Below are positions 1,387 to 20,406 of a stretch of 64,000 bases of DNA, piece after piece; positions within the stretch are counted from its first letter, which is position 1, and every line of letters starts with the position of its first letter. Source of the DNA: Gammaproteobacteria bacterium (lineage in GTDB: Bacteria > Pseudomonadota > Gammaproteobacteria > GCA-001735895); contig JBNKUM010000008.1 of the NCBI GenBank assembly GCA_050298595.1, forward strand, positions 139,017 through 203,016. The letters run 5' to 3'. The position numbers were made by a program, and so were the translations under genes. The notes under the pieces were generated by a model. It ran no database searches, was not told where the DNA came from, and saw only the letters and a program-made list of their open reading frames with translations.

Positions 1387-2730
1387 TCAGTCTGCTCCAG
1401 CAGATTCCACCACCGCATCAGCGATTCGATGCGCAAGTGACTCTACCTGATCAGCATCCTGCCCCTCAACCATAACCCTGATCAGGGGCTCGGTACCAGA
1501 AGGTCTTAATAGTACTCGGCCCTTACCAGCTAATTCCTGCTCAGCCTTTTCTACAGCTTTTGAAATCAGAGGGAAGTCTCCAGGATTTATTTTCGAGGCA
1601 ATAGGCACATTAACCATACATTGAGGGTATTTGCTCATACCTTGCCGTAATTCGGCCAATGTCTGTTTATTATTCACCATTGACTCGAGAACCTGTAACG
1701 CCGCAATAATGCCATCGCCGGTAGTGGTTTGATTTAGAGATATAATATGCCCGGAAGACTCTCCGCCCAGATACCAGTCATTTGCCTTGAGTTTTTCCAT
1801 CACATATCGATCACCAACATTAGCGCGTTCAAATGGAACTTTGAGTTCTGCCAACGCATGTTCCAGACCCAGATTCGTCATCAGGGTACCAACGACCCCC
1901 CCTTCAAGTTGACCACTCAATTGTTGTTTACGCGCGATAACAAACAGTATTTCGTCACCATCCATGACTTCGCCGCAGGCATCCATCATCATCACCCGGT
2001 CTCCATCACCATCGAAGGCAATACCCAGATCGGCCTGATTTTCCAGCAGCAGTGAACGCATATTCTGCGGATATAGTGCGCCACAATCCTTGTTGATATT
2101 CAAACCATCAGGAGACACGCCCATCTCAATAACTTCTGCGCCTAGTTCGCGGAATATGTGCGGCGCGACATGATAGGTTGCACCATTAGCACAATCTAAT
2201 ACAACCTTCATTCCCCTCAGGGTGGTTCGAAATGGAATCGAGTTTTTGCAAAATTCAATATAGCGACTTCTGGAATCCTCCATCCGATAAACCTTACCCA
2301 AATCCTTGGATTCCACCATCAGCATGGGCTGATCCATCATATCTTCTATTTCATGCTCCACCGAATCGGGTAACTTATAGCCATCTCCGCTAAAGAATTT
2401 AATTCCATCATCGTAGTAAGGGTTATGCGATGCACTAATCACGATACCTGCAGTGGCACGCTGCGCCTGAGTCATATAAGCAACTGCCGGTGTCGGCATA
2501 GGCCCCATCAAGGTTACATCCAGTCCGGCTGCCGCCAGACCTGCTTCCAGCGAAGCCTCAAAAATATAGCCTGATATCCGGGTATCCTTGCCGATTACCA
2601 CATGGCCTTCACCCTGCTTGCCAAGCACCTTACCAGCAGCCCAACCCAGCTTCATAATAAAATCAGCCGTCATAGGTTCCTGACCTACACGACCACGAAT
2701 GCCATCCGTTCCAAAAAATTTACGCGCCAT
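1387..2730 (-). CDS. glmM: phosphoglucosamine mutase
   Basis: 447-aa ORF with FGTDGIRG at the N-terminus, the phosphoserine loop SASHNP and the GGESSGH motif. Its position between folP and tpiA fits. Confidence 0.9.
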
Positions 2731-2738
2731 CTTAATCC

Positions 2739-3572
2739 TCAGTATTCTATAGCTGTCTGCTTAAGTGTCTGCACTATAGCCAATGCCTGTCGGGTTTCTG
2801 TGACATCGTGCACACGGATAATATGCGCGCCAAGCATGGCACTGATCACTGCCGCAGAGACACTGCCATACACCCTTTCATCAACAGGTTTATCTAGCAC
2901 CAGTCCGACCATGCTTTTACGCGACAAGCCCACCAGCAAGGGGTAACCCATCTCGACAAACTCTGGCAACGCTTTCAGTAATTGATAATTTTGATCCAGA
3001 GTTTTACCAAATCCAAACCCGGGATCAATGATTAAGTTTTGTTTTTTTATACCTGCTGCCTGAGCGGCAAATAATCGATCGTGCAGAAAACGCTTAACCT
3101 CTTTGAGCACCGACTCATACTCAGGGTTTTGCTGCATATTATCGGGACTGCCCTGCATATGCATCAAACAAACAGGTAATCCAGAGTCGGCCGCAGCCTG
3201 CATAGCACCCTCGCGACGTAAGGCCCACACATCATTGATCATATTTACCCCAGCAGCACTAGCTACACGCATTACCTCGGCTTTGCTGGTATCAATTGAA
3301 ATAGGTATGTCTGAAAATGCACGAATACTTTCAATAAGCGGGATAGTGCGACTGATTTCCTCATCCACCGAAACATCTGCTGCGCCAGGACGCGTTGACT
3401 CACCGCCTATATCGAGAATATCCGCCCCCTCGTCAATCAGCCTGCGCGCCTGCTCTAGCGCTTTATCATGGCTAAGGAAATGCCCGCCATCGGAAAACGA
3501 ATCCGGTGTTGTATTGATAATACCCATGACTGACAGGGCTTTTAAATCGAGGATAGATGATTTGCTGAACAT
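2739..3572 (-). CDS. folP: dihydropteroate synthase
   Basis: 277-aa ORF with the [14 protein letters not shown] and [10 protein letters not shown] pterin-binding motifs. It lies downstream of ftsH as in E. coli. Confidence 0.9.
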
Positions 3573-10200: not shown

Positions 10201-10484
10201 GCTGTCTGTCCACCCATCGTTGGCAGCAGAGCATCAGGCTTTTCTTTTTCGATGATCTTTTCCACTGCCGTCCAGTGAATCGGTTCGATATAAACCGCAT
10301 CCGCTGTATCCGGATCGGTCATGATGGTGGCGGGGTTGGAATTGATCAGAATAACTCTAAAGCCTTCTTCCTTTAAAGCCTTACAGGCCTGAGCACCAGA
10401 ATAATCAAATTCGCAGGCCTGCCCGATAACAATAGGACCTGCCCCTATGATCAGAATGCTTTGAATATCTTGTCTACGTGGCAT
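7266..10484 (-). CDS. carB: carbamoyl-phosphate synthase large subunit
   Basis: 1072-aa ORF with duplicated ATP-grasp halves and an MGS-like C-terminal domain. Begins [30 protein letters not shown]. Confidence 0.95.
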
Positions 10485-11626
10485 CAGGCTTGCCCTCCCT
10501 GTGCTTTAAGCTCTATTAGCTCAAAGAAATGATCGAATAAGGGAGACACATCATGCGGGCCAGGACTGGCTTCAGGATGCCCCTGAAAACTAAAAGCTGG
10601 CTTATCGGTGCGATGGACAGCCTGTAGTGAGCCATCGAATAAGGAGCGATGGGTTGCTTTTAAATTTGCAGGTAAGCTTTCTTCATCTACAGCAAACCCA
10701 TGGTTCTGACTGGTAATCATCACCACGCCAGACGCCAGATCCTGCACAGGATGGTTAGCACCATGATGACCGAACTTCATTTTCACCGTTTTGGCTCCAC
10801 TGGCTAATGACAATAATTGATGCCCCAGACAGATACCGAAAATAGGTATTTCTGTCTGTAAAAACTGCTGGATAGCTTCTATCGCATAATCGCAGGGCTC
10901 TGGATCACCTGGGCCATTGGATAGAAAAATGCCATCTGGCTGCATTGCCAGAACATCTGTTGCTGGGGTTTGTGCGGGTACCACGGTGACACGAGCACCA
11001 CGTTCGCAGAGCATGCGTAAGATATTCTTCTTTACACCATAATCGTAAGCGACCACATGATAAGGGGTAGATTCAGCCTGCTGATGTCCCTCAGTCAAAG
11101 ACCAGACAGTTTCTGTCCATGGATATTGTTGCTGGGTTGTGACTTCTTTTGCCAGATCCATTCCCGCCAGACCTGGAAAATCTTGTGCTGCTGCAATAGC
11201 CTGAGCTTCATCTATATCTTCGCCCGCCATAATGGCACCATTTTGCGCACCCTTTTCTCTTAACAGTCGGGTTAACTGTCTGGTATCGATATCTGCAATG
11301 GCTACAACATTGTTTTGTTTGAGATAATCTCCCAAAGACATTTCGCTGCGCCAGTTACTCGCCAAAAGCGGTAAATCTCGAATCACCAGGCCACTGGCGT
11401 GGATTTGATCGGCCTCTTCATCTTCACGAGTTACCCCGGTATTACCGATATGTGGATAGGTTAAAGTAATTATCTGGCGAGCATAGGATGGATCGGTCAA
11501 AATTTCCTGATATCCAGTCATCGAGGTATTGAAAACCACCTCCCCCTGGGTCAGACCATTTGATCCAATCGCTATACCCTTAAAGATGGTTCCATCTTGC
11601 AGGGCGAGTATGGCAGGTACCGTCAC
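10484..11626 (-). CDS. carA: carbamoyl-phosphate synthase small subunit (glutaminase); GTG start preceded by a GGAG Shine-Dalgarno
   Basis: 380-aa ORF with the class I glutamine amidotransferase triad context GICLGHQLL. Its stop overlaps the carB start by 1 nt. Confidence 0.9.
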
Positions 11627-11828
11627 AATTTCTCCGCTGTTAAATTAATGACCCAGACTGAAATGGGCGCGCACAAAAATGGGATGAGCCACTGGTTCAC
11701 CCCACTTACTGAAAAATTTTATTGAGATAATACTGAGGAAACAGCATTTTCCTGAGTGCGTATTCTAGGGTATAACCCCCAGGAGTGTCTATGAATGAAT
11801 GGATTTTATGCAAATCTTGTCACTCTTA

Positions 11829-12069
11829 AACCTAGAATCCGCAGTTGGACGATCGGAAGTGTGCGTTTGCGGTGGTGTAGATCAAGGCGTGACGACGCGG
11901 AATAGCGGGCTATTCCAGGGAGTTACAACGCAGAGATACACCGCCGCAAACGTGCAATTCAGCTCGTAGCGGGATTCGCCTGTTGGGTGAAACAGATAAA
12001 TCGAGTTTAATGGTTTACGAAACAGAGGGTTACACTTTAATGCGAGCGGTTAACTGCGGAATCTAGGTT
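11829..12069. repeat. nested inverted-repeat structured element of about 240 bp (candidate structured RNA or MITE-like repeat)
   Basis: Outer arms AACCTAGAATCCGCAGTT (11829-11846) and AACTGCGGAATCTAGGTT (12052-12069) match 17 of 18 as reverse complements. Inner arms are 11861-11879 and 11937-11956. A central hairpin GGAATAGC-GGG-CTATTCC sits at 11899-11916. Confidence 0.5.
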
Positions 12070-12108
12070 AAAAGTAACTCCCCTGAATAGTAAGCGAAAA
12101 AATTAGAG

Positions 12109-13659
12109 CTATCCGGCTTTTTTAGTCAAAGCCTTTTTGCATCTTCTGACTGCCTGCAACATCTGGTTTGCATCGGCATAGCGTTGATAAGGCTTTTTGG
12201 ATAATGCTTTTTGCAGTATTTGCTTGATGGAATCAGGCACGGTAAGAATACTGAGATCTACCTTCTGGGTGAGTACATTTTTTTTCATCTCAGACAACTT
12301 TTCACCATAAAAGGGTTGATTGCCGGTTAATAGGTGATAAATAGTTACCGCCAGCGAAAAAAGATCTGACCGACCATCAATTCTTAATCCATTCAACTGC
12401 TCGGGGGACATATAGGCGGGGGTTCCTATGATCTTTCTCTCTTCATCTTTATGTCGAAAATCGCTATAAGCAGCACCAAAATCAGTAAGTATGTAATGTT
12501 TGAGTTTATTGTCATACATGATATTGGCTGGTTTTATATCACCATGCACAATGTTTTTTTCATGCGCTGCAGTGAGCGCATCGAGCACTGATTCCATTAT
12601 GCGCAAACTCTCCCCCGAGGTAATAAATTTTTTACGCCGCAACCTTTCCGACATGGGATAACCTTCGACATAGTCCATTGCAATAAAAGCTCGGTCATCG
12701 ATGATATCGGCATCGTGAATCTTGACTATATTCGGATGATCAAGTTGAGACGCAGTCAGCGCCTCATGCAAAAAAGTCATCACATCACGCGCACCAGTAT
12801 CATCATTTAACTTATCGTTAAGAATTTTGAGTGCTATTCGTTTATGGGTATGTAAATCGTGAGCGTCATACACAGTTGCGGTCGCTCCTCGAGCCTTTTT
12901 ACCCAGTAATTGATACTGGCCGAACTGTTTCGTTTTGGTTGTATCGGAGCTGTCAGTCTGGCTTACACTTTTCTCCTGTTCCATTGAATCAATTCTTTCT
13001 ACAAAGTCCTGCATCCCCGGATCAAACTTGACCAGCCAGGCATAGAGACTGCGCGCTGTCACCCAGTCCTGCTGCTCCTCTAGCTGCATACCCAGATCGT
13101 AAGCCAGCTCGAACATTTCATCTGAAAACGGGCAGTTTTTTAAGATTAACAACGCCGTCTTGAAATCCTTTTGCTGTATATACTGATTAATCACTTTCAC
13201 CTGACATACCTGTTCGGGTAATACGAAATTTTTAATCTGTGGAAAACGAACCCACACAAAAAGCACCACCACGGTCAAGCTGAACATGATTACCGACCAA
13301 ACCATAGGCAACCAGATCTGCTGTAACACCGCCAGCAATACTTCGAGCATCAACATAGCAGAAATGATCGGAATTACAAAGATCAGGGTCAGATGTTTAC
13401 AACTGCGCAGCAACAAGCACAGGAATACTGCGCCGAACATGAGGCATATCACTAGCCGCTGTAAAAACCAGGGATACCCCTGCTCAGTGACTGACACTTC
13501 CAGATTGAACCTGGGTGTTAAATCTATTAACTGTTGATAAAAAGCGCTTTCCAGACCGATAATAGCAGCATGAAAACTCAGTAAAATACTGAGTAACAAC
13601 ATACATCCTGTATAAATGAGCATCCATTTGCGTGTTTGAACATCAATCCACATGCCCAT
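12109..13659 (-). CDS. membrane-anchored Hanks-type Ser/Thr protein kinase: N-terminal TM region of about 4-5 helices, a helical linker and a C-terminal kinase domain
   Basis: Gly-rich loop LGKKARGATATVY, beta3 lysine in IALKIL, catalytic loop HGDIKPAN (non-RD), DFG in TDFGAA and SPEQ for APE. The first 150 aa or so are strongly hydrophobic. Confidence 0.75.
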   Translation of the reverse strand: MGMWIDVQTRKWMLIYTGCMLLLSILLSFHAAIIGLESAFYQQLIDLTPRFNLEVSVTEQGYPWFLQRLVICLMFGAVFLCLLLRSCKHLTLIFVIPIISAMLMLEVLLAVLQQIWLPMVWSVIMFSLTVVVLFVWVRFPQIKNFVLPEQVCQVKVINQYIQQKDFKTALLILKNCPFSDEMFELAYDLGMQLEEQQDWVTARSLYAWLVKFDPGMQDFVERIDSMEQEKSVSQTDSSDTTKTKQFGQYQLLGKKARGATATVYDAHDLHTHKRIALKILNDKLNDDTGARDVMTFLHEALTASQLDHPNIVKIHDADIIDDRAFIAMDYVEGYPMSERLRRKKFITSGESLRIMESVLDALTAAHEKNIVHGDIKPANIMYDNKLKHYILTDFGAAYSDFRHKDEERKIIGTPAYMSPEQLNGLRIDGRSDLFSLAVTIYHLLTGNQPFYGEKLSEMKKNVLTQKVDLSILTVPDSIKQILQKALSKKPYQRYADANQMLQAVRRCKKALTKKAG

Positions 13660-13686: not shown

Positions 13687-16600
13687 CTAAGCATCATAGT
13701 TAAGAACTGGCGCTAACCAACGCTCCGTGACTGACTGCCCCATACCTTTACGCTCGGCATAATCCAGTAACTGATCTTTTTCGATTTTACCCACAGCAAA
13801 GTAATTTGCCTGCGGGTGAGCAAAGTAAAACCCTGATACCGATGCCATCGGCAGCATGGCATAAGACTCGGTGATGGTGATACCAATATTTTGATCTGGC
13901 TGAATTAACTCCCATAGCAAGGCCTTCTCAGTGTGATCTGGACAGGCTGGATAACCCGGTGCTGGACGTATGCCCTGATACGATTCCCTGATCAGCTCAC
14001 TGTTTTGCAGATTTTCATCGTTGGCATAACCCCAGGCCTGCTTGCGTATCTTTTCATGCAGCCATTCGGCAGCCGCTTCGGCAAGACGATCAGCCAGCGC
14101 TTTTGCCATGATAGCATTGTAATCATCGTGCTGAGCTTCAAATTGCTCTACGATTTTTTCCAGACCGATGCCTGCAGTAACTGCAAAAGCCCCCAGGTAA
14201 TCCGGTAATCCAGTAGACTCGGGGGCAATAAAATCTGACAAACACTGGTTTGCTTTACCAGGAGGCTTCTGGTTTTGCTGACGCAGATGATGCAGCACCA
14301 TTAACTCTTCACTACGCTGCTCGGACTGATAAAGCACAATATCATCATCTCTGCTATTCGCAGGGAAAAATCCATACACAGCTTTGGCGCCCAGCTGTCC
14401 CTGATCGACAATACTCGATAATTGAACCTGCGCATCTTCAAATAATTGCTGAGCTTCTTTGCCAACAATCTCATCCTGCAAAATTTTCGGATAGCTACCC
14501 GCCAGCTCCCAGGCATGGAAAAAAGGCGTCCAGTCAATATACTCAACCAGTTCATGCAGATCTATTTCATCAATCACTGACACCCCTGTTGAAGCAGGCT
14601 TTGGTGGCTGGTAACCACTCCAGTCTATAGGCGTACGATTTTCACGTGCCTGTGCCAGGGTGAGGAATTTCTTATTAGATTGCCTGCCGGCATGCAGTTC
14701 GCGCACCTGTACATATTCATCACGAATACCTTTTCTAAAATCATCACCCTGATTATCACTCAGCAGCGCTGATGCCACACCGACCGCACGCGATGCATCT
14801 TTTACATACACCACGCTATCGGCATCATAATGCGGTTCAATCTTCACCGCCGTATGAACTCGGGAGGTAGTCGCCCCCCCTATCATCAGAGGAATACTAA
14901 AACCTTGACGTTTCATCTCTTTAGCAACATGCACCATCTCATCCAGCGACGGAGTGATCAGGCCTGAAAGCCCTATGATATCGACGTTTTGTTCGCGCGC
15001 AGTTTTTAAGATGGTTTCTGCAGGCACCATGACACCAAGATCGATAATTTCATAATTGTTACACTGCAGTACAACGCCGACGATATTCTTACCGATATCG
15101 TGCACATCGCCTTTAACCGTCGCCATCAGTATCTTGCCATTGGTAGACAGATCATCACTGCTTTTCTCAGCTTCCAGATAAGGCATCAAATACGCCACTG
15201 CCTGCTTCATGACACGCGCAGATTTAACCACCTGAGGCAGGAACATCTTACCATCGCCAAATAGATCACCCACTACATTCATACCATCCATCAAAGGACC
15301 TTCAATCACATTCAATGAAGCAGGATAATGCTGACGTGCCTCTTCCGTATCAACCTCGATAAATTCGGTTATACCCTTAACCAGTGCATGCTCCAGACGT
15401 TTGTTGATATCCAGACTACGCCACGCCTGATCTTCCTTGTTTTCCAGCGCCTTGCCATCACCCCGGTATTTTTCGGCAATATCCAGCAATGCCTCAGTCG
15501 CTTCGGGATTGCGGTTAAGCACGACATCCTCTACCCGTTGCTTTAATTCTTCGGGTATATCGGAATAGATGGCCAGCTGACCGGCATTGACTATACCCAT
15601 ATCCATACCCTGCTGAATCGCATGATATAAAAACACCGCATGGATCGCTTCGCGAACCGGGTTATTGCCTCTGAAGGAGAATGAGACATTTGATAACCCC
15701 CCACTGACCAGGGCATGGGGCAGGTTCTGCTTAATGAATTTTGTGGCCTCAAAAAAATCGACGGCGTAGTTATTGTGCTCATCTATGCCCGTTGCAATCG
15801 CAAAGATATTGGGGTCGAAAATAATATCTTCAGGAGGAAAACCTAACTGTTCGGTTAATATCTGATAGGCGCGTTGGCAGATTTCAATCTTACGTGCCGC
15901 CGTATCAGCCTGCCCATGTTCGTCGAAAGCCATAACGATAGCCGCTGCACCATAACGTCGAACCAGACGCGCCTGCTGGATAAACTTCTCTTCACCCTCC
16001 TTAAGACTGATCGAATTCACTACACCCTTGCCCTGGATGCATTGCAACCCGGCTTCGATGATGTCCCATTTGGATGAATCCAGCATGATCGGAACACGAG
16101 AAATATCAGGTTCACTGGCGATCAGATTCAGAAAGCGCACCATCGCCTCTTTCGACTCCAGCAGACCTTCATCCATATTGATATCGATAATCTGCGCGCC
16201 GTTTTCTACCTGTTGCCTGGCTACATCCAGTGCAGTTTCGTAATCGCCTTCCATGATCAGGCGTTTAAACATGGCAGAGCCAGTAACGTTAGTTCGTTCG
16301 CCAACATTCACAAACAGACTGTCGGCGGAAATGGTACAGGGCTCTAATCCAGCCAACTGACAACTGACAGGTAACTCAGGAATTTTACGTGGCGCGAGGC
16401 CTGAGACCTTTTGCACTATAGCCCTGATATGATCGGGGCTGGTACCACAGCATCCACCCACAATATTCAGAAATCCATTCTCCGCCCATTCGACGATTTC
16501 ACCCGCAACATCTTCAGGAGTTTCATCGTATTCACCGAATTCATTGGGCAACCCGGCATTGGGGTGAGCTGACACATGCGTATCCGCAATATTCGACAAG

Positions 16601-17382
16601 GTTTCTACATATTGGCGTAATTCCTTCGGCCCTAGCGCGCAGTTAAGCCCGATAGATACAGGCTCTGCATGGCGCAGGCTATTGTAAAAGGCTTCGGTGG
16701 TTTGCCCGGACAGGGTGCGACCGGATGCATCAGTAATCGTGCCCGAGATCATGATAGGCAGTTCTTTCTCGCGCTGATCAAATACCTGTTTAACAGCAAA
16801 AATTGCGGCCTTGGCATTCAAGGTGTCGAAGATGGTTTCGATCAGGATGATATCGGACCCACCATCGATCAAACCTTCAGTTGCTTCGCTGTATATCTCT
16901 ACCAACTCATTAAAGCTGGTATTGCGATAACCGGGATCATTCACATCAGGTGATAAAGAAGCTGTACGACTGGTTGGCCCCAGTACACCGGCTACAAAAC
17001 GGGGCTTAGCTGGGTTCTGCCGGGTAAAGTCATCGCAGATTGCTCGCGCAATCTCACTGGATGTTTTATTGATTTCGTATGCCAGATCCTGCATCGAATA
17101 ATCCGACATGGAAATTCGGTTGGCATTGAAGGTATTGGTTTCGATGATATCCGCACCAGCTTGCAGATAGGCTTTATGGATATCACTGATAATCTGTGGC
17201 TGAGTCAACGACAAAAGGTCATTATTGCCCTTGAGCGGGCTTTCCCAGTCAGCAAAACGTTGTCCTCGATAATCTGACTCTTCCAGCTCATAAGATTGAA
17301 TCATGGTGCCCATAGCACCATCGAGAAATAAGATTCGCTGCTTCAGGGCATCTAGAAAAACTTGCGGGTCAGAGGAACTCAC
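13687..17382 (-). CDS. metH: cobalamin-dependent methionine synthase
   Basis: 1231-aa ORF with Hcy-binding, pterin-binding, B12-binding ([11 protein letters not shown]) and AdoMet reactivation domains in canonical order. Confidence 0.95.
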
Positions 17383-17489: not shown

Positions 17490-18047
17490 ATGGGAAATCG
17501 ACTTAGCTCTATAATTACACGAACGGGTGATGACGGCAGCACAATGCTGGGGGATGGCAGCCGATTGTTAAAAAACGATATTCGCATTCAATGTCTGGGT
17601 GAAACTGATGAATTGAATTCATTATTGGGCTTATTGAGAAGCCTGATCGATGACGTCGACATTTCTCAGATACTATTCCAGATTCAACATGATTTATTTG
17701 ATATCGGTGCCGAGCTTAGCCAGCCAGCAAAGTCGTTGATTACTCAGGAATACGTTGAGTTCCTGGATCATAAAGCACAGTCTTATAATGAAAAACTACC
17801 AGCTCTTAAAGAGTTCATTTTGCCAGGAGGCAGCAGCGCTATTGCCTACCTACACCTCGCCAGAACACTATGTCGCCGTGCTGAACGTAGCCTGGTCACT
17901 CTAGATCAACAGCAGGCTGTTAATCCGCAAAGCCTGCATTATATGAACAGGCTTTCCGATTTATTGTTTATCCTGGCGAGATATTGCGCGCTTCAGGATG
18001 GGCAGGAAGAAATCTACTGGCAGTCCAAATTTTCCAGACAGAGTTGA
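17490..18047 (+). CDS. PduO-type ATP:cob(I)alamin adenosyltransferase
   Basis: 185-aa ORF with the N-terminal signature TRTGDDGST of the PduO/MMAB family. It is divergent from metH. Confidence 0.8.
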   Translation: MGNRLSSIITRTGDDGSTMLGDGSRLLKNDIRIQCLGETDELNSLLGLLRSLIDDVDISQILFQIQHDLFDIGAELSQPAKSLITQEYVEFLDHKAQSYNEKLPALKEFILPGGSSAIAYLHLARTLCRRAERSLVTLDQQQAVNPQSLHYMNRLSDLLFILARYCALQDGQEEIYWQSKFSRQS

Positions 18048-18079
18048 TTGCAGCAATAACCAGCTTTGCAGAATATAGC

Positions 18080-18517
18080 TTAACCGTGGCTTCGTTGATA
18101 CTGCCCCATCATCCAGCCAAGAAACGCTGTCAGGGTTTGCTTCTGCTTACGGTCACAGTCTTTTTGCATCGCTTCAAGCCGGCTTCGGGTTTCCATTAAT
18201 AAGCTTTCGTATTCACGAACCTTTTGCTGAGACTCCTGTAATTTCATCTGAAGTCTATTCACCTGATCGGCCATCACTCTTTCAGAAGGAATAGAATCAG
18301 CCTGAATCTTGAAAATAGCATTGTGCTGAATGCGCTCTACACGATCCAGTTCCTTTTCATTTTCAAGCCTGACCTGTGGATAGAACTTGAGCAGTGAATT
18401 TACACTCACATCACCTTCAAAAACTTCAAGATTACCCGCTTTGATTTCCTGCTGGATCTGCCTTCTGCTGATGCCGGCCATTTTGGCTGCGGTCGAAATG
18501 TTTAAATGGTGTTGCAT
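18080..18517 (-). CDS. hypothetical protein: N-terminal MerR/excisionase-like HTH followed by a long coiled coil
   Basis: 145-aa ORF. The N-terminal motif AAKMAGISRRQIQQEIKAGNL resembles an HTH_17/MerR helix-turn-helix. The remainder is heptad-rich and charged. Confidence 0.5.
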   Translation of the reverse strand: MQHHLNISTAAKMAGISRRQIQQEIKAGNLEVFEGDVSVNSLLKFYPQVRLENEKELDRVERIQHNAIFKIQADSIPSERVMADQVNRLQMKLQESQQKVREYESLLMETRSRLEAMQKDCDRKQKQTLTAFLGWMMGQYQRSHG

Positions 18518-18603
18518 GATGTCCTCTTGGTTGTTTACAAGAAAACTTATACCTAATTCGGACAGGCATTACAATAGAAATATATCACTAATGGGATATA
18601 CGG

Positions 18604-19008
18604 TTAGACCGATGAGCCAGAGGTATGCCAGGCAAAAGAGCAATCTAGTTGTGAACGTACCTGTATAAGTCCGGCCAGCCCCTTATTGATCATGACACTG
18701 ATAGGAGGTTCGTTATTGAATCTTTTATGCGGCTGCTTCATCCATCTTGCACACATTTCTACATTGCGAGGATAAGAGGTTCTCAGGGCATCAGCTATAC
18801 CCAGAAGATGTTCCAGGTGTTGATTAATCAGCTCGGTATCCGGTAAAGGCTCATCCTGACGATAGCGTTCCAGCTTGCGGGTACGCATGTCTTCGGGCAA
18901 ACCAAGCAGGATGATTTTCTGCTCACCATTGGTACCCCAGCTATCGAGCAGCTGCATGATGTGATTGCTTAATAAGACACGCTGATCTTTGCTGCCGGTT
19001 AATCTCAT
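18604..19008 (-). CDS. DUF2384-like protein (ParS/MbcA/Xre-type antitoxin toxin-binding domain), apparently orphan
   Basis: 134-aa ORF. The C-terminal half (HLLGIADALRTSYPRNVEMCARWMKQP...PPISVMINKGLAGLIQVRSQLD) follows the DUF2384 pattern, A-x-x-W-L/M-x-x-P ... P-hydrophobic ... G ... V ... L. This is a by-eye match only. Confidence 0.4.
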   Translation of the reverse strand: MRLTGSKDQRVLLSNHIMQLLDSWGTNGEQKIILLGLPEDMRTRKLERYRQDEPLPDTELINQHLEHLLGIADALRTSYPRNVEMCARWMKQPHKRFNNEPPISVMINKGLAGLIQVRSQLDCSFAWHTSGSSV

Positions 19009-19085
19009 GCCACCCCCGGGGAAGTAATAATTGATGGCTTAGTATAGATTCAGCTTAGCTGCGAATACCCAGCTTAAAGATAAGG

Positions 19086-19412
19086 TTAATCATCTTCCAG
19101 ATTAAAATATCCGCGTTGTAATGCGTGTTTGAGCTGATCGAAGCCTTCGATTGCCTCCAGATAGGCATTGCGCCATTTTTTTGCTTCTTCGCAGAGTTGA
19201 ATATCAAGATTCGATTCATCAGCATGCGCCATCTGCAGCACATACTTCAGATATCTTGCACGTAAAACAGCTATGGATTGCGCCAAATGCAGAAAATCTG
19301 ACTTCTTGATGTTACCAGCAATTTTAGTAATTGTACTTGAATTCATTAACGAGATTTGATGCTCAAATTGTTGCATCAAACGACGTATCTCTGTTTCATT
19401 TTCGCCAGCCAT
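19086..19412 (-). CDS. hypothetical all-helical protein
   Basis: 108-aa ORF with no family recognised. Its start context and codon usage look gene-like. Confidence 0.4.
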   Translation of the reverse strand: MAGENETEIRRLMQQFEHQISLMNSSTITKIAGNIKKSDFLHLAQSIAVLRARYLKYVLQMAHADESNLDIQLCEEAKKWRNAYLEAIEGFDQLKHALQRGYFNLEDD

Positions 19413-19497
19413 TAGGTTCCCCCTGATCCATCCTTTAACTTAAGATAGTTATAGACAAGAAATATACAGTTGTCAGCGATCAGATGAAACAATTTTA

Positions 19498-20406
19498 TCA
19501 ACGATATAAAGTCACACTGACCCGCCGGTTAAGTGCCCTGGATTGATCATCCTTCCCTTTTACCAGGGGCTGGTTTTCGCCATAAAATTCTACATGTAGC
19601 ATTCGTGGATCAATATCACTCTGCACCAGATAATCATAAACGTACCAGGCACGCCGCGCTGAGAGCGAATCGTTGTAGCATTGGCTTCCTTTAAAATCTG
19701 CATGCCCAGTTATCTTCACTGTTTTAACTGTAGGATCCACTTTTAGATAAGCCAGTATTTTCGAAAGCGCCCTTTCCTCTTCTTCCTCCAGCGGAAATTC
19801 ATCGTCAAACTCAAAATGTACTAGAGCGCGCTTTATATCTTCGAAATTATAGGGGTGTAGCTGACTTATACATTCTCCAAAATCAGCCTCAACATCACGA
19901 AACCTCACGGTAGAGAGAATAACCGAAACCGAGTTGAAACCATCTTCATCATCAATAAAAAACAGACTGGGCTGCTTTCCTTGCTGCAGCTCAAAATAGG
20001 CATATCGCGCCGTACTGGAGTTAATATCAACTACTGGATCGCTTAATCCAGATGTTTTAAGGTCAGCCAGGGTTGACTGAGTCTGTATGCCTTTCCAGTT
20101 AGCGGTTACTGATTGAAAAGCGACAGCCATATCTTTTTTATAGTTATGCTTCGATACAAACTTCAATTTCAGCGGGCGCCCACTCTCCTGATAGAACAGC
20201 GCTTTACCAAAGCGTGGGATGATATGCTCTATCTCACAACGCGTAGGGGTATTTACCGATAGCGTCCATCGTGACTTTTCCATAGGAGACATATAGATAC
20301 GGTCGGGAGCCGCCTGTACAGCGGGACCCCACATAACTATCAGGCAAATAAGAATCAAATAGCGCATAACGGGCAAAATTGAAGACATACCTCCTGTATC
20401 GTTCAA
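19498..20406 (-). CDS. OmpA-family peptidoglycan-associated protein with signal peptide
   Basis: 302-aa ORF with an N-terminal signal peptide. The C-terminal OmpA-like domain carries ITGHAD...NDSLSARRAWYVYDYL...NRRVSVTL. Confidence 0.75.
   Translation of the reverse strand: MNDTGGMSSILPVMRYLILICLIVMWGPAVQAAPDRIYMSPMEKSRWTLSVNTPTRCEIEHIIPRFGKALFYQESGRPLKLKFVSKHNYKKDMAVAFQSVTANWKGIQTQSTLADLKTSGLSDPVVDINSSTARYAYFELQQGKQPSLFFIDDEDGFNSVSVILSTVRFRDVEADFGECISQLHPYNFEDIKRALVHFEFDDEFPLEEEEERALSKILAYLKVDPTVKTVKITGHADFKGSQCYNDSLSARRAWYVYDYLVQSDIDPRMLHVEFYGENQPLVKGKDDQSRALNRRVSVTLYR

Follow-up and report, generated by a model that had tools for sequence, protein, structure and literature searches.

A 64,000-nt stretch of a gammaproteobacterial genome (assembly GCA_050298595.1, contig JBNKUM010000008.1, positions 139,017 to 203,016; hereafter the window) carries on its minus strand, at positions 12109-13659, an open reading frame (ORF) that probably encodes an active, membrane-tethered and phosphorylation-independent Hanks-type Ser/Thr kinase (STK), possibly gated through a module of four transmembrane (TM) helices and a TPR-like helical segment. 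Alignments place the protein in a conserved sub-family, so far found only in metagenome-assembled genomes (MAGs), that is sensor-less and non-RD, with a coherently dismantled phospho-switch. This is the new part of the finding. The sensor-first domain order is already known as the normal one in CHASE2 receptor kinases.

The ORF is a single uninterrupted frame of 516 codons, with an ATG start, encoding 516 aa followed by a stop. Among 5.8 billion clusters searched, at least 120 consist of homologues spanning the full length (497-577 aa, about 98% coverage, 40-89% identity), originating from NCBI, JGI, ENA and Logan assemblies. The layout given in the original prediction, with a polytopic membrane part at the N-terminus, then a helical linker and the kinase last, was borne out by Pfam, hydropathy, structure prediction and the homologues. 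The original prediction had also raised the possibility of a fusion of two ORFs. That unrelated membrane-protein and kinase ORFs were joined by assembly or annotation now has a practically negligible probability: nothing was found in its favour, and the uninterrupted frame, together with independent full-length copies of the same protein on many contigs from different sources, rules it out. The few named carriers are MAGs labelled "Gammaproteobacteria bacterium" or "Proteobacteria/Pseudomonadota bacterium", and the neighbouring CarA, whose closest cultured match is that of Sinobacterium caligoides (78%), places the host among uncultured Gammaproteobacteria. The family belongs to uncultured marine-type Gammaproteobacteria and is not previously characterised.

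Pfam Pkinase (PF00069) matched aa 257-502 of the window protein with E=5.1e-45 and 154.3 bits, against a cutoff of 31.7; no Pfam family matched the first 240 aa. Among PDB sequences the best matches, at E~1e-33, came from StkP, PknE and PknB, in their kinase domains, and Foldseek comparison of the AlphaFold2 (AF2) model described below with PknB and Stk1 gave target-normalised TM-scores of 0.81-0.86. NCBIfam models matched through the kinase domain only, all far under their cutoffs. PknB_PASTA_kin (NF033483), for example, has a cutoff of 450 bits but reached 218.5, over model positions 7-271 only, so that the protein does not belong to the PASTA kinases. K278, E299, D374, K376, N379 and D393 align with their counterparts in StkP and PknE. 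With a Pkinase score above the gathering threshold, a Lys/alphaC-Glu pair, an HxDxKxxN motif and the DFG Asp, the protein is a member of the Hanks kinases.

Residue invariance was counted over 113 aligned family sequences. Within the kinase domain, K278, E299, H372-G373-D374, K376, P377, A378, N379 and D393-F-G395 are invariant, as are G412-T-P414 (T413 being the P+1 Thr), P419-E420, D432 and R493, the subdomain XI Arg. The non-RD HGD motif, the beta3 Lys K278, the DFG at 393-395 and the SPE at 418-420 had all been read correctly from the window sequence, and each proved to be family-invariant. On proper alignment, neither the catalytic Lys nor the catalytic Asp, whose absence had been foreseen as the sign of a pseudokinase, is missing. 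In the Atlas, bacterial pseudokinase families are defined by loss of the VAIK-Lys, of the HRD catalytic Asp or of the DFG-Asp (10.1101/2025.01.12.632604); all three are invariant here. Because every catalytic residue is invariant, the window protein is very probably an active kinase.

The residues that couple kinase activity to phosphorylation present a different picture. We compared HRD/CHASE2 relatives (94 activation loops, 106 alphaC helices), introduced below, with the HGD family (121 activation loops, 118 glycine loops, 123 alphaC helices). The catalytic loop reads HGD in 123/123 family members (the 120 listed matches and three more) and HRD in none. The activation loop has the same median length, 16 residues, in both sets. 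In the HRD/CHASE2 relatives it carries the motif K-T-[KR]-T-G, with the two Thr present in 93/94 and 86/94 loops and the Gly in 93/94. In the HGD family the first Thr position is occupied by Q, D, E or K, the second by E or D (87/121) and the Gly position by N or K, and the mean number of Thr per loop falls from 3.26 to 0.46. At alphaC position E-4, the "RF" Arg is present in 75 of the 106 HRD/CHASE2 relatives and is replaced by H, T, S, Q or N in the HGD family; Arg is not among the common residues at this position in the 123 members. The adjacent aromatic residue, F in the relatives, is kept as F or W, and the gatekeeper is Met in both sets.

The glycine loop changed as well, from G-[RK]-G-A-M-G-x-V-Y in the HRD/CHASE2 relatives to A-x-G-[AS]-T-[AS]-x-[VM]-Y in the HGD family. 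The canonical GxGxxG is absent from the window protein, which shows A256-x-G258-x-x-A261 with only the middle Gly conserved (118/118). An atypical loop with the string GKKARG had been described; the loop is indeed atypical and the string is present, but the residues aligned with GxGxxG are A-R-G-A-T-A and not GKKARG. This is a deviation from the consensus and no ground for excluding the protein from the Hanks kinases. The Atlas describes the RF arginine as contacting the activation loop's phospho-threonines, and the glycine-loop Met, highly conserved in bacterial STKs, as packing on the RF phenylalanine (10.1101/2025.01.12.632604). In the HGD family this Met position is a Thr in 118/118 sequences. 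The protein is not an RD kinase, as it lacks both the Arg before the catalytic Asp and a conserved phospho-acceptor Thr/Ser in the activation loop. Since the arginines of the basic pocket (HRD-Arg and RF-Arg) and its phospho-acceptor Thr pair are all replaced, with an acidic residue at the second Thr, we infer that the kinase no longer depends on activation-loop phosphorylation.

Kyte-Doolittle hydropathy indicates four TM segments (approximately 13-35, 64-84, 90-113 and 117-138). The AF2 model, built on the 113-sequence alignment, has a mean predicted local distance difference test score (pLDDT) of 88.2 and places the TM helices at 7-27, 64-83, 92-113 and 120-146. It also predicts an amphipathic helix (31-47) inside loop 1, five cytoplasmic juxtamembrane helices (154-234), a disordered linker (232-242) and the kinase (249-515). 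Loop 1 is acidic (1 K/R against 4 D/E), and loop 2 is short and basic, being RSCKH in the window protein and YTRSRTT in the family consensus. By the positive-inside rule, hydropathy, loop charges and the AF2 model agree on a predicted N-in/C-in topology with four TM helices and a cytoplasmic kinase. Four or five TM helices had been proposed at first: four are supported, whereas five are ruled out, because helix 31-47 is amphipathic and of low hydropathy and an odd number would place the kinase in the periplasm. Predicted extracytoplasmic exposure is therefore tiny, with one loop of about 27 aa and another of about 5 aa.

Conservation is unevenly distributed along the protein. Mean identity to the window protein is 30% for TM1 and loop 1, 28% for TM2-4, 47% for the juxtamembrane module, 14% for the linker and 62% for the kinase. 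Outside the kinase, P49, P118, A169, Y187, G190, E194, A202, Y206, D213 and P214 are invariant, and C176 and D180 are likewise conserved in the juxtamembrane module. In the membrane part, E37 is found in 112/113 sequences, and P49, E/Q106 (in the middle of TM3) and P118 in 113/113 each.

We searched for the origin of this architecture among more distant proteins. A pattern scan of GTDB species genomes returned relatives 27-35% identical to the window protein; among the matches listed, about twenty align from query residue ~50-175 onwards, far ahead of the kinase domain, and ten of these from ~50-80. ORFs rebuilt at these distant loci are mostly 820-890 aa long and comprise a TM helix at the extreme N-terminus, a region of about 350 residues, a cluster of three TM helices and a C-terminal HRD kinase. 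The ~350-residue region matched Pfam CHASE2 (PF05226) in three of these proteins (Nitrospirae, Gammaproteobacteria and Terriglobia), at E=5e-63, 1e-54 and 5e-58. The window protein shows no match to Pfam CHASE2 at E<=1 and has the ~27-aa loop 1 at that position. Profile-profile comparison between the family and fifteen long relatives gave a probability of 100% (E=7e-127), with an alignment colinear from a P-x-W motif ahead of TM2, through TM2-4, to the end of the kinase. The family and the CHASE2 kinases have in common the juxtamembrane motif K-C-P..D...Y.LG..E....A..Y.W...P.

A profile restricted to residues 1-240, hence without the kinase, retrieved only 181 matches among 1.84 billion representative proteins. 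Apart from family members, fragments and a small number of further short proteins, these comprise roughly a hundred proteins 700-950 aa long. In the latter, query residues ~58-228 align to residues ~340-580, and 93 of the matches of at least 700 aa carry HRD. Four of the latter were sampled; two of them contain CHASE2 and give weak TPR_2 matches exactly on the juxtamembrane segment, and the other two are without detectable CHASE2. Pfam offers no dedicated model for the TPR-like juxtamembrane module common to both groups, and its weak TPR_2 matches are limited to these two long relatives. In P0148 (749 aa) and P0157 (812 aa) the TM/juxtamembrane/kinase unit is kept, with a periplasmic region of about 300 aa that lacks Pfam CHASE2 at E<=0.001 and may be a divergent or a different sensor domain.

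These alignments identify the unit formed by TM2-4, the TPR-like module and the kinase as homologous to that of CHASE2 receptor kinases. Both groups have a TM1, a 3-TM cluster, a homologous TPR-like module and a C-terminal Hanks kinase, with the sensor side first. They differ in that the CHASE2 kinases possess a periplasmic CHASE2 domain of about 300 aa instead of a ~27-aa loop, whereas the window family has HGD, lacks T-x-T-G and the RF-Arg, has a degenerate glycine loop and forms a long-branch clade (99/100). The cyanobacterial CHASE2 Ser/Thr kinases alr1869, all4838 and tll1205 have been listed, and CHASE2 kinases were noted there as exceptional in that their additional domain precedes the kinase (PMC2176072). 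CHASE2 and its flanking TM helices form a module common to other outputs, such as adenylate cyclases (PMC13001267). Of the 42 bacterial STK families in the Atlas, only one is characterised by a TM region ahead of the kinase, in agreement with the initial remark that these kinases are usually kinase-first; it is family CCM1, from Chloroflexota, Cyanobacteria and other phyla, whose members bear, before the kinase, a TM region or an FHA domain (10.1101/2025.01.12.632604). The "inverted topology" emphasised in the original prediction is thus uncommon among bacterial STK families, but it is no novelty of this protein: because its unit is homologous to that of CHASE2 receptor kinases, where this order is standard, the order is inherited.

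Other short relatives with HRD emerged from the search with the 1-240 profile (P0145, P0191, P0195 and P0227; 507-624 aa). None of the four matches CHASE2. They converge on nearly the same spacing of four TM helices as in the window protein and have a TPR-like module and a C-terminal kinase, but they keep HRD and nest individually among the long CHASE2 kinases. In P0145 the glycine loop is still the canonical G-R-G-A-M-G, and the activation loop still has a K-T-G segment; the protein is colinear with residues 306-817 of an 818-aa relative (47% identity), about 290 aa of the periplasmic region being gone. A further CHASE2-less protein, P0152 (502 aa), combines this short architecture with HAD in its catalytic loop and so represents another non-RD state. 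A neighbour-joining tree built on kinase domains only (100 bootstraps) scatters the short HRD forms among the long CHASE2 kinases. It recovers the HGD family as a clade (99/100) on a long branch, with the HAD protein P0152 as its sister (100/100). The short HRD forms are separate and apparently more recent sensor losses. Because they scatter among long kinases, and because P0145 lacks ~290 aa, sensor deletion appears to be recurrent in the CHASE2-kinase lineage. By our inference, the HGD family goes back to an older sensor deletion of the same kind; the shared N-terminal module and the analogy with the other short forms are the grounds for this.

We therefore favour the following scenario. The ancestor would have been a CHASE2 receptor kinase composed of TM1, a periplasmic CHASE2 domain, three TM helices, a TPR-like module and an RD kinase. 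The periplasmic sensor would have been lost, leaving a ~27-residue loop in its place, while the four TM helices, the TPR-like module and the kinase were retained. The elements coupling activity to loop phosphorylation would have been replaced (HRD-Arg by Gly, RF-Arg by H/T/S/Q/N, T-x-T-G by charged residues), so that output would be set neither by an extracytoplasmic ligand nor by loop autophosphorylation. The level of expression could determine the output instead, as could oligomerisation or the binding of a partner via the 4-TM/TPR-like part, or a membrane-intrinsic cue.

Several observations weigh against this scenario. The neighbour-joining tree does not place the HGD clade inside the CHASE2 kinases, and monophyly of all TM-first kinases was recovered in 4/100 bootstraps. 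For homology of TM1 and an L-E..Y motif with the start of CHASE2, local hhalign of aa 2-59 against residues 1-56 gave P=0.0036 and a probability of 9%, and the reading of residues 1-60 as a remnant of TM1 and the start of CHASE2 is only suggestive. The degenerate glycine loop, with its first Gly changed to Ala and its Met to Thr, could lower ATP affinity. The strictly conserved E37, P49, E/Q106 and P118 hint that the membrane part is more than a plain anchor. Finally, every carrier is an uncultured MAG.

The last but one of these points leads to an alternative that we regard as possible, though rather unlikely as it stands, in which the 4-TM bundle senses the state of the membrane, protons or cations, or an accessory membrane protein, and switches the kinase via the TPR-like module. 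The four residues are conserved although the TM regions average 28-30% identity; the CHASE2-kinase consensus shows no such conservation at the position aligned to E/Q106, and the TM part is kept over the whole 40-89% identity range of the family. However, no partner gene is conserved beside the kinase in the orthologous loci compared, conserved Pro and Glu can merely serve helix packing, and nothing points to a stimulus. Intramembrane sensing refines the phosphorylation-independent kinase proposed above more than it contradicts it. Its boldest form, in which the 4-TM remnant of the CHASE2 receptor would be an autonomous sensor and the kinase, with E/D for phospho-Thr, would be phosphomimetic, always primed and gated only via the TM/TPR-like module, we consider doubtful. 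It is improbable that the domain, as a low-activity kinase or a pseudokinase-like scaffold, serves chiefly to bind nucleotide or partners and phosphorylates only rarely. The replacement of two of the three glycine-loop glycines, the change of Met to Thr in 118/118 sequences and the loss of the HRD-Arg and RF-Arg would fit such a role, but the VAIK-Lys, alphaC-Glu, catalytic Asp, Asn, DFG-Asp, P+1 Thr and subdomain XI Arg are invariant over the 113 sequences and none of the Atlas pseudokinase-defining residues is lost. The invariant catalytic residues rule out a pseudokinase as the principal interpretation.

Genomic context bears on two further explanations. In the window, metH (13687-17382) lies 27 nt upstream of the kinase ORF and carA (10484-11626) lies 482 nt downstream, followed by carB. 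The comparison covered orthologous loci with kinases sharing 70%, 42%, 40% and 40% identity with that of the window, together with the locus of P0036. In all but the latter, the kinase gene lies in one conserved block that reads aceE-aceF-lpd, a hydrolase gene, (motY), a cob(I)alamin adenosyltransferase gene on the opposite strand, the kinase, carA-carB-greA, yhbY, rlmE and ftsH. metH is found only in the window and in the loci of P0006 and P0036, and is missing in 3/5 orthologous loci, one of which has a TonB-dependent receptor gene at its position. An opposite-strand EamA gene lies between the kinase and carA in two loci, and carA is not downstream of the kinase in that of P0036. No PP2C phosphatase or FHA gene is adjacent to the kinase in any locus compared. 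The location between metH and carA noted initially is thus correct, but the order varies among orthologous loci and the context is not functionally unusual. Because the whole block from the pyruvate dehydrogenase genes to ftsH is syntenic, the linkage reflects inherited lineage gene order rather than an operon, and comparative synteny rules out an operon with metH or carA. It is accordingly very unlikely that the kinase is a dedicated, co-transcribed regulator of carAB (pyrimidine/arginine synthesis) or of metH (methionine synthesis), despite the 27-nt gap and its position upstream of carA-carB even in loci with kinases only 40-42% identical; carA moreover has a conserved promoter-like site and leader of its own. 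An anti-phage role as a single-gene defence kinase, PD-T4-6-like or related, is extremely unlikely. PADLOC PD-T4-6 models match with E down to 4e-68, as do the mad6, MkoA and PglW models, and the NCBIfam MAD6 and PglW models match in part. All these matches, however, fall within the generic kinase domain (aa ~216-516), the NCBIfam scores are 138 against a cutoff of 460 (MAD6) and 86 against 990 (PglW), and the conserved housekeeping neighbourhood, which is not a variable island, persists down to 40% kinase identity. We therefore ruled out membership of the PD-T4-6, MAD6 or PglW systems.

The phosphorylation-independent kinase that we favour can be set beside several known systems. The PASTA kinases PknB, StkP and Stk1 provide the closest solved kinase domains and have the same Met gatekeeper, but their order is kinase, one TM helix and extracellular PASTA domains, and they are RD kinases activated by phosphorylation of a T-x-T loop. 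Intramembrane-sensing histidine kinases of the BceS/LiaS type have minimal extracytoplasmic loops between their TM helices, as does the window protein. The analogy is functional only: fold and chemistry are unrelated, and here no transporter or partner gene is linked. Non-RD receptor kinases of plant and animal innate immunity also have an N-terminal membrane part and a C-terminal kinase, and their non-RD state implies that they are not controlled by activation-loop phosphorylation. This too is an analogy without specific relationship, as the nearest relatives of the window protein are bacterial, and it is polytopic whereas the eukaryotic receptors are single-pass.

If our proposal holds, the family would represent a natural experiment in receptor-kinase rewiring, in which the sensor and four switch elements (HRD-Arg, alphaC RF-Arg, the loop Thr pair and the glycine-loop Met/Gly) changed together, with the catalytic core, the membrane bundle and the TPR-like coupler remaining strongly constrained. 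It would offer a compact system for probing the role of the three post-CHASE2 TM helices and of the juxtamembrane module in CHASE2 receptors, as well as a means of studying how non-RD kinases are controlled in bacteria. If the boldest form of intramembrane sensing were true, such sensing would be seen for the first time among Hanks-type Ser/Thr kinases, and the family would parallel the intramembrane-sensing histidine kinases. The strong matches of PD-T4-6 hidden Markov models to a kinase in a housekeeping context also point to likely false-positive defence calls in automated annotation.

Table 1. Coordinates of the kinase ORF and of its predicted parts in the window.
Feature	Position	Strand	Basis
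Complete ORF, membrane-anchored non-RD Hanks-type Ser/Thr kinase	12109..13659	-	Frame, Pfam, homologues
TM1, aa ~7-30, N-terminus predicted cytoplasmic	13570..13641	-	Hydropathy and AF2 helix 7-27
Loop 1, aa 31-63, short, acidic, predicted periplasmic; amphipathic helix 31-47, invariant E37 and P49	13471..13569	-	
TM2-TM4 cluster, aa 64-146; basic cytoplasmic loop 84-90, E/Q106 in TM3, invariant P118	13222..13470	-	
TPR-like helical juxtamembrane module, predicted cytoplasmic, aa 147-231	12967..13221	-	
Linker, aa 232-246, disordered, poorly conserved	12922..12966	-	pLDDT <50 at 232-242; 14% mean identity
Protein kinase domain, aa 247-516	12112..12921	-	Pfam Pkinase E=5e-45 and PDB matches
Degenerate glycine loop A256-R-G258-A-T260-A261-T-V-Y264	12868..12894	-	Alignment
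beta3 catalytic Lys K278 (ALKIL)	12826..12828	-	Alignment; codon read
Catalytic loop H372-G-D374-I-K-P-A-N379, non-RD	12523..12546	-	Alignment; codons read
DFG (393-395), activation loop without T-x-T-G pair, P+1/SPE to E420	12400..12483	-	Alignment

The 482-nt spacer between the kinase and carA consists of a conserved carA-proximal promoter/leader of about 190 nt and a remainder that holds a palindrome. The latter is nested and imperfect, extends over about 265 nt (11826-12090) between the kinase stop and the carA promoter region, and has its arms at 11826-11855/12043-12072, 11849-11879/11937-11967 and 11910-11926/12074-12090. The orthologous intergenic regions of loci L082 and L084 lack it, the window contains a single copy, and Rfam gives no match; it looks like a genome-specific insertion resembling a miniature inverted-repeat transposable element (MITE) or a repetitive extragenic palindrome (REP). 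This adjoining structured element had been counted as part of the kinase context, a view that its absence from orthologous loci does not support; a functional link with the kinase was ruled out on the grounds of this absence, the single copy in the window and the lack of an Rfam match.

The carA-proximal ~190 nt (approximately 11627-11815, minus strand) are strongly conserved in loci where the kinases are only 42-70% identical. They contain a sigma-70-like site, TAGACA-18-TAGAAT (11791-11762), followed by GGGGTGAACCAGTGGCTCATCCC and TTTTTG, and a hairpin (11681-11704) with a T-run at 11675-11679 on the minus strand. The hairpin region is a candidate carAB leader or attenuator, with no Rfam family at gathering score. 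Elsewhere in the block, locus L082 has small ORFs at 2606-3010, between motY and the adenosyltransferase gene, one of which shows a weak match to the antitoxin-like Xre_MbcA_ParS_C; the window counterpart of this region is 18047-19498. Across the 64 kb of the window, Rfam reaches its gathering score only once, for a tRNA gene at 3-85 on the minus strand.

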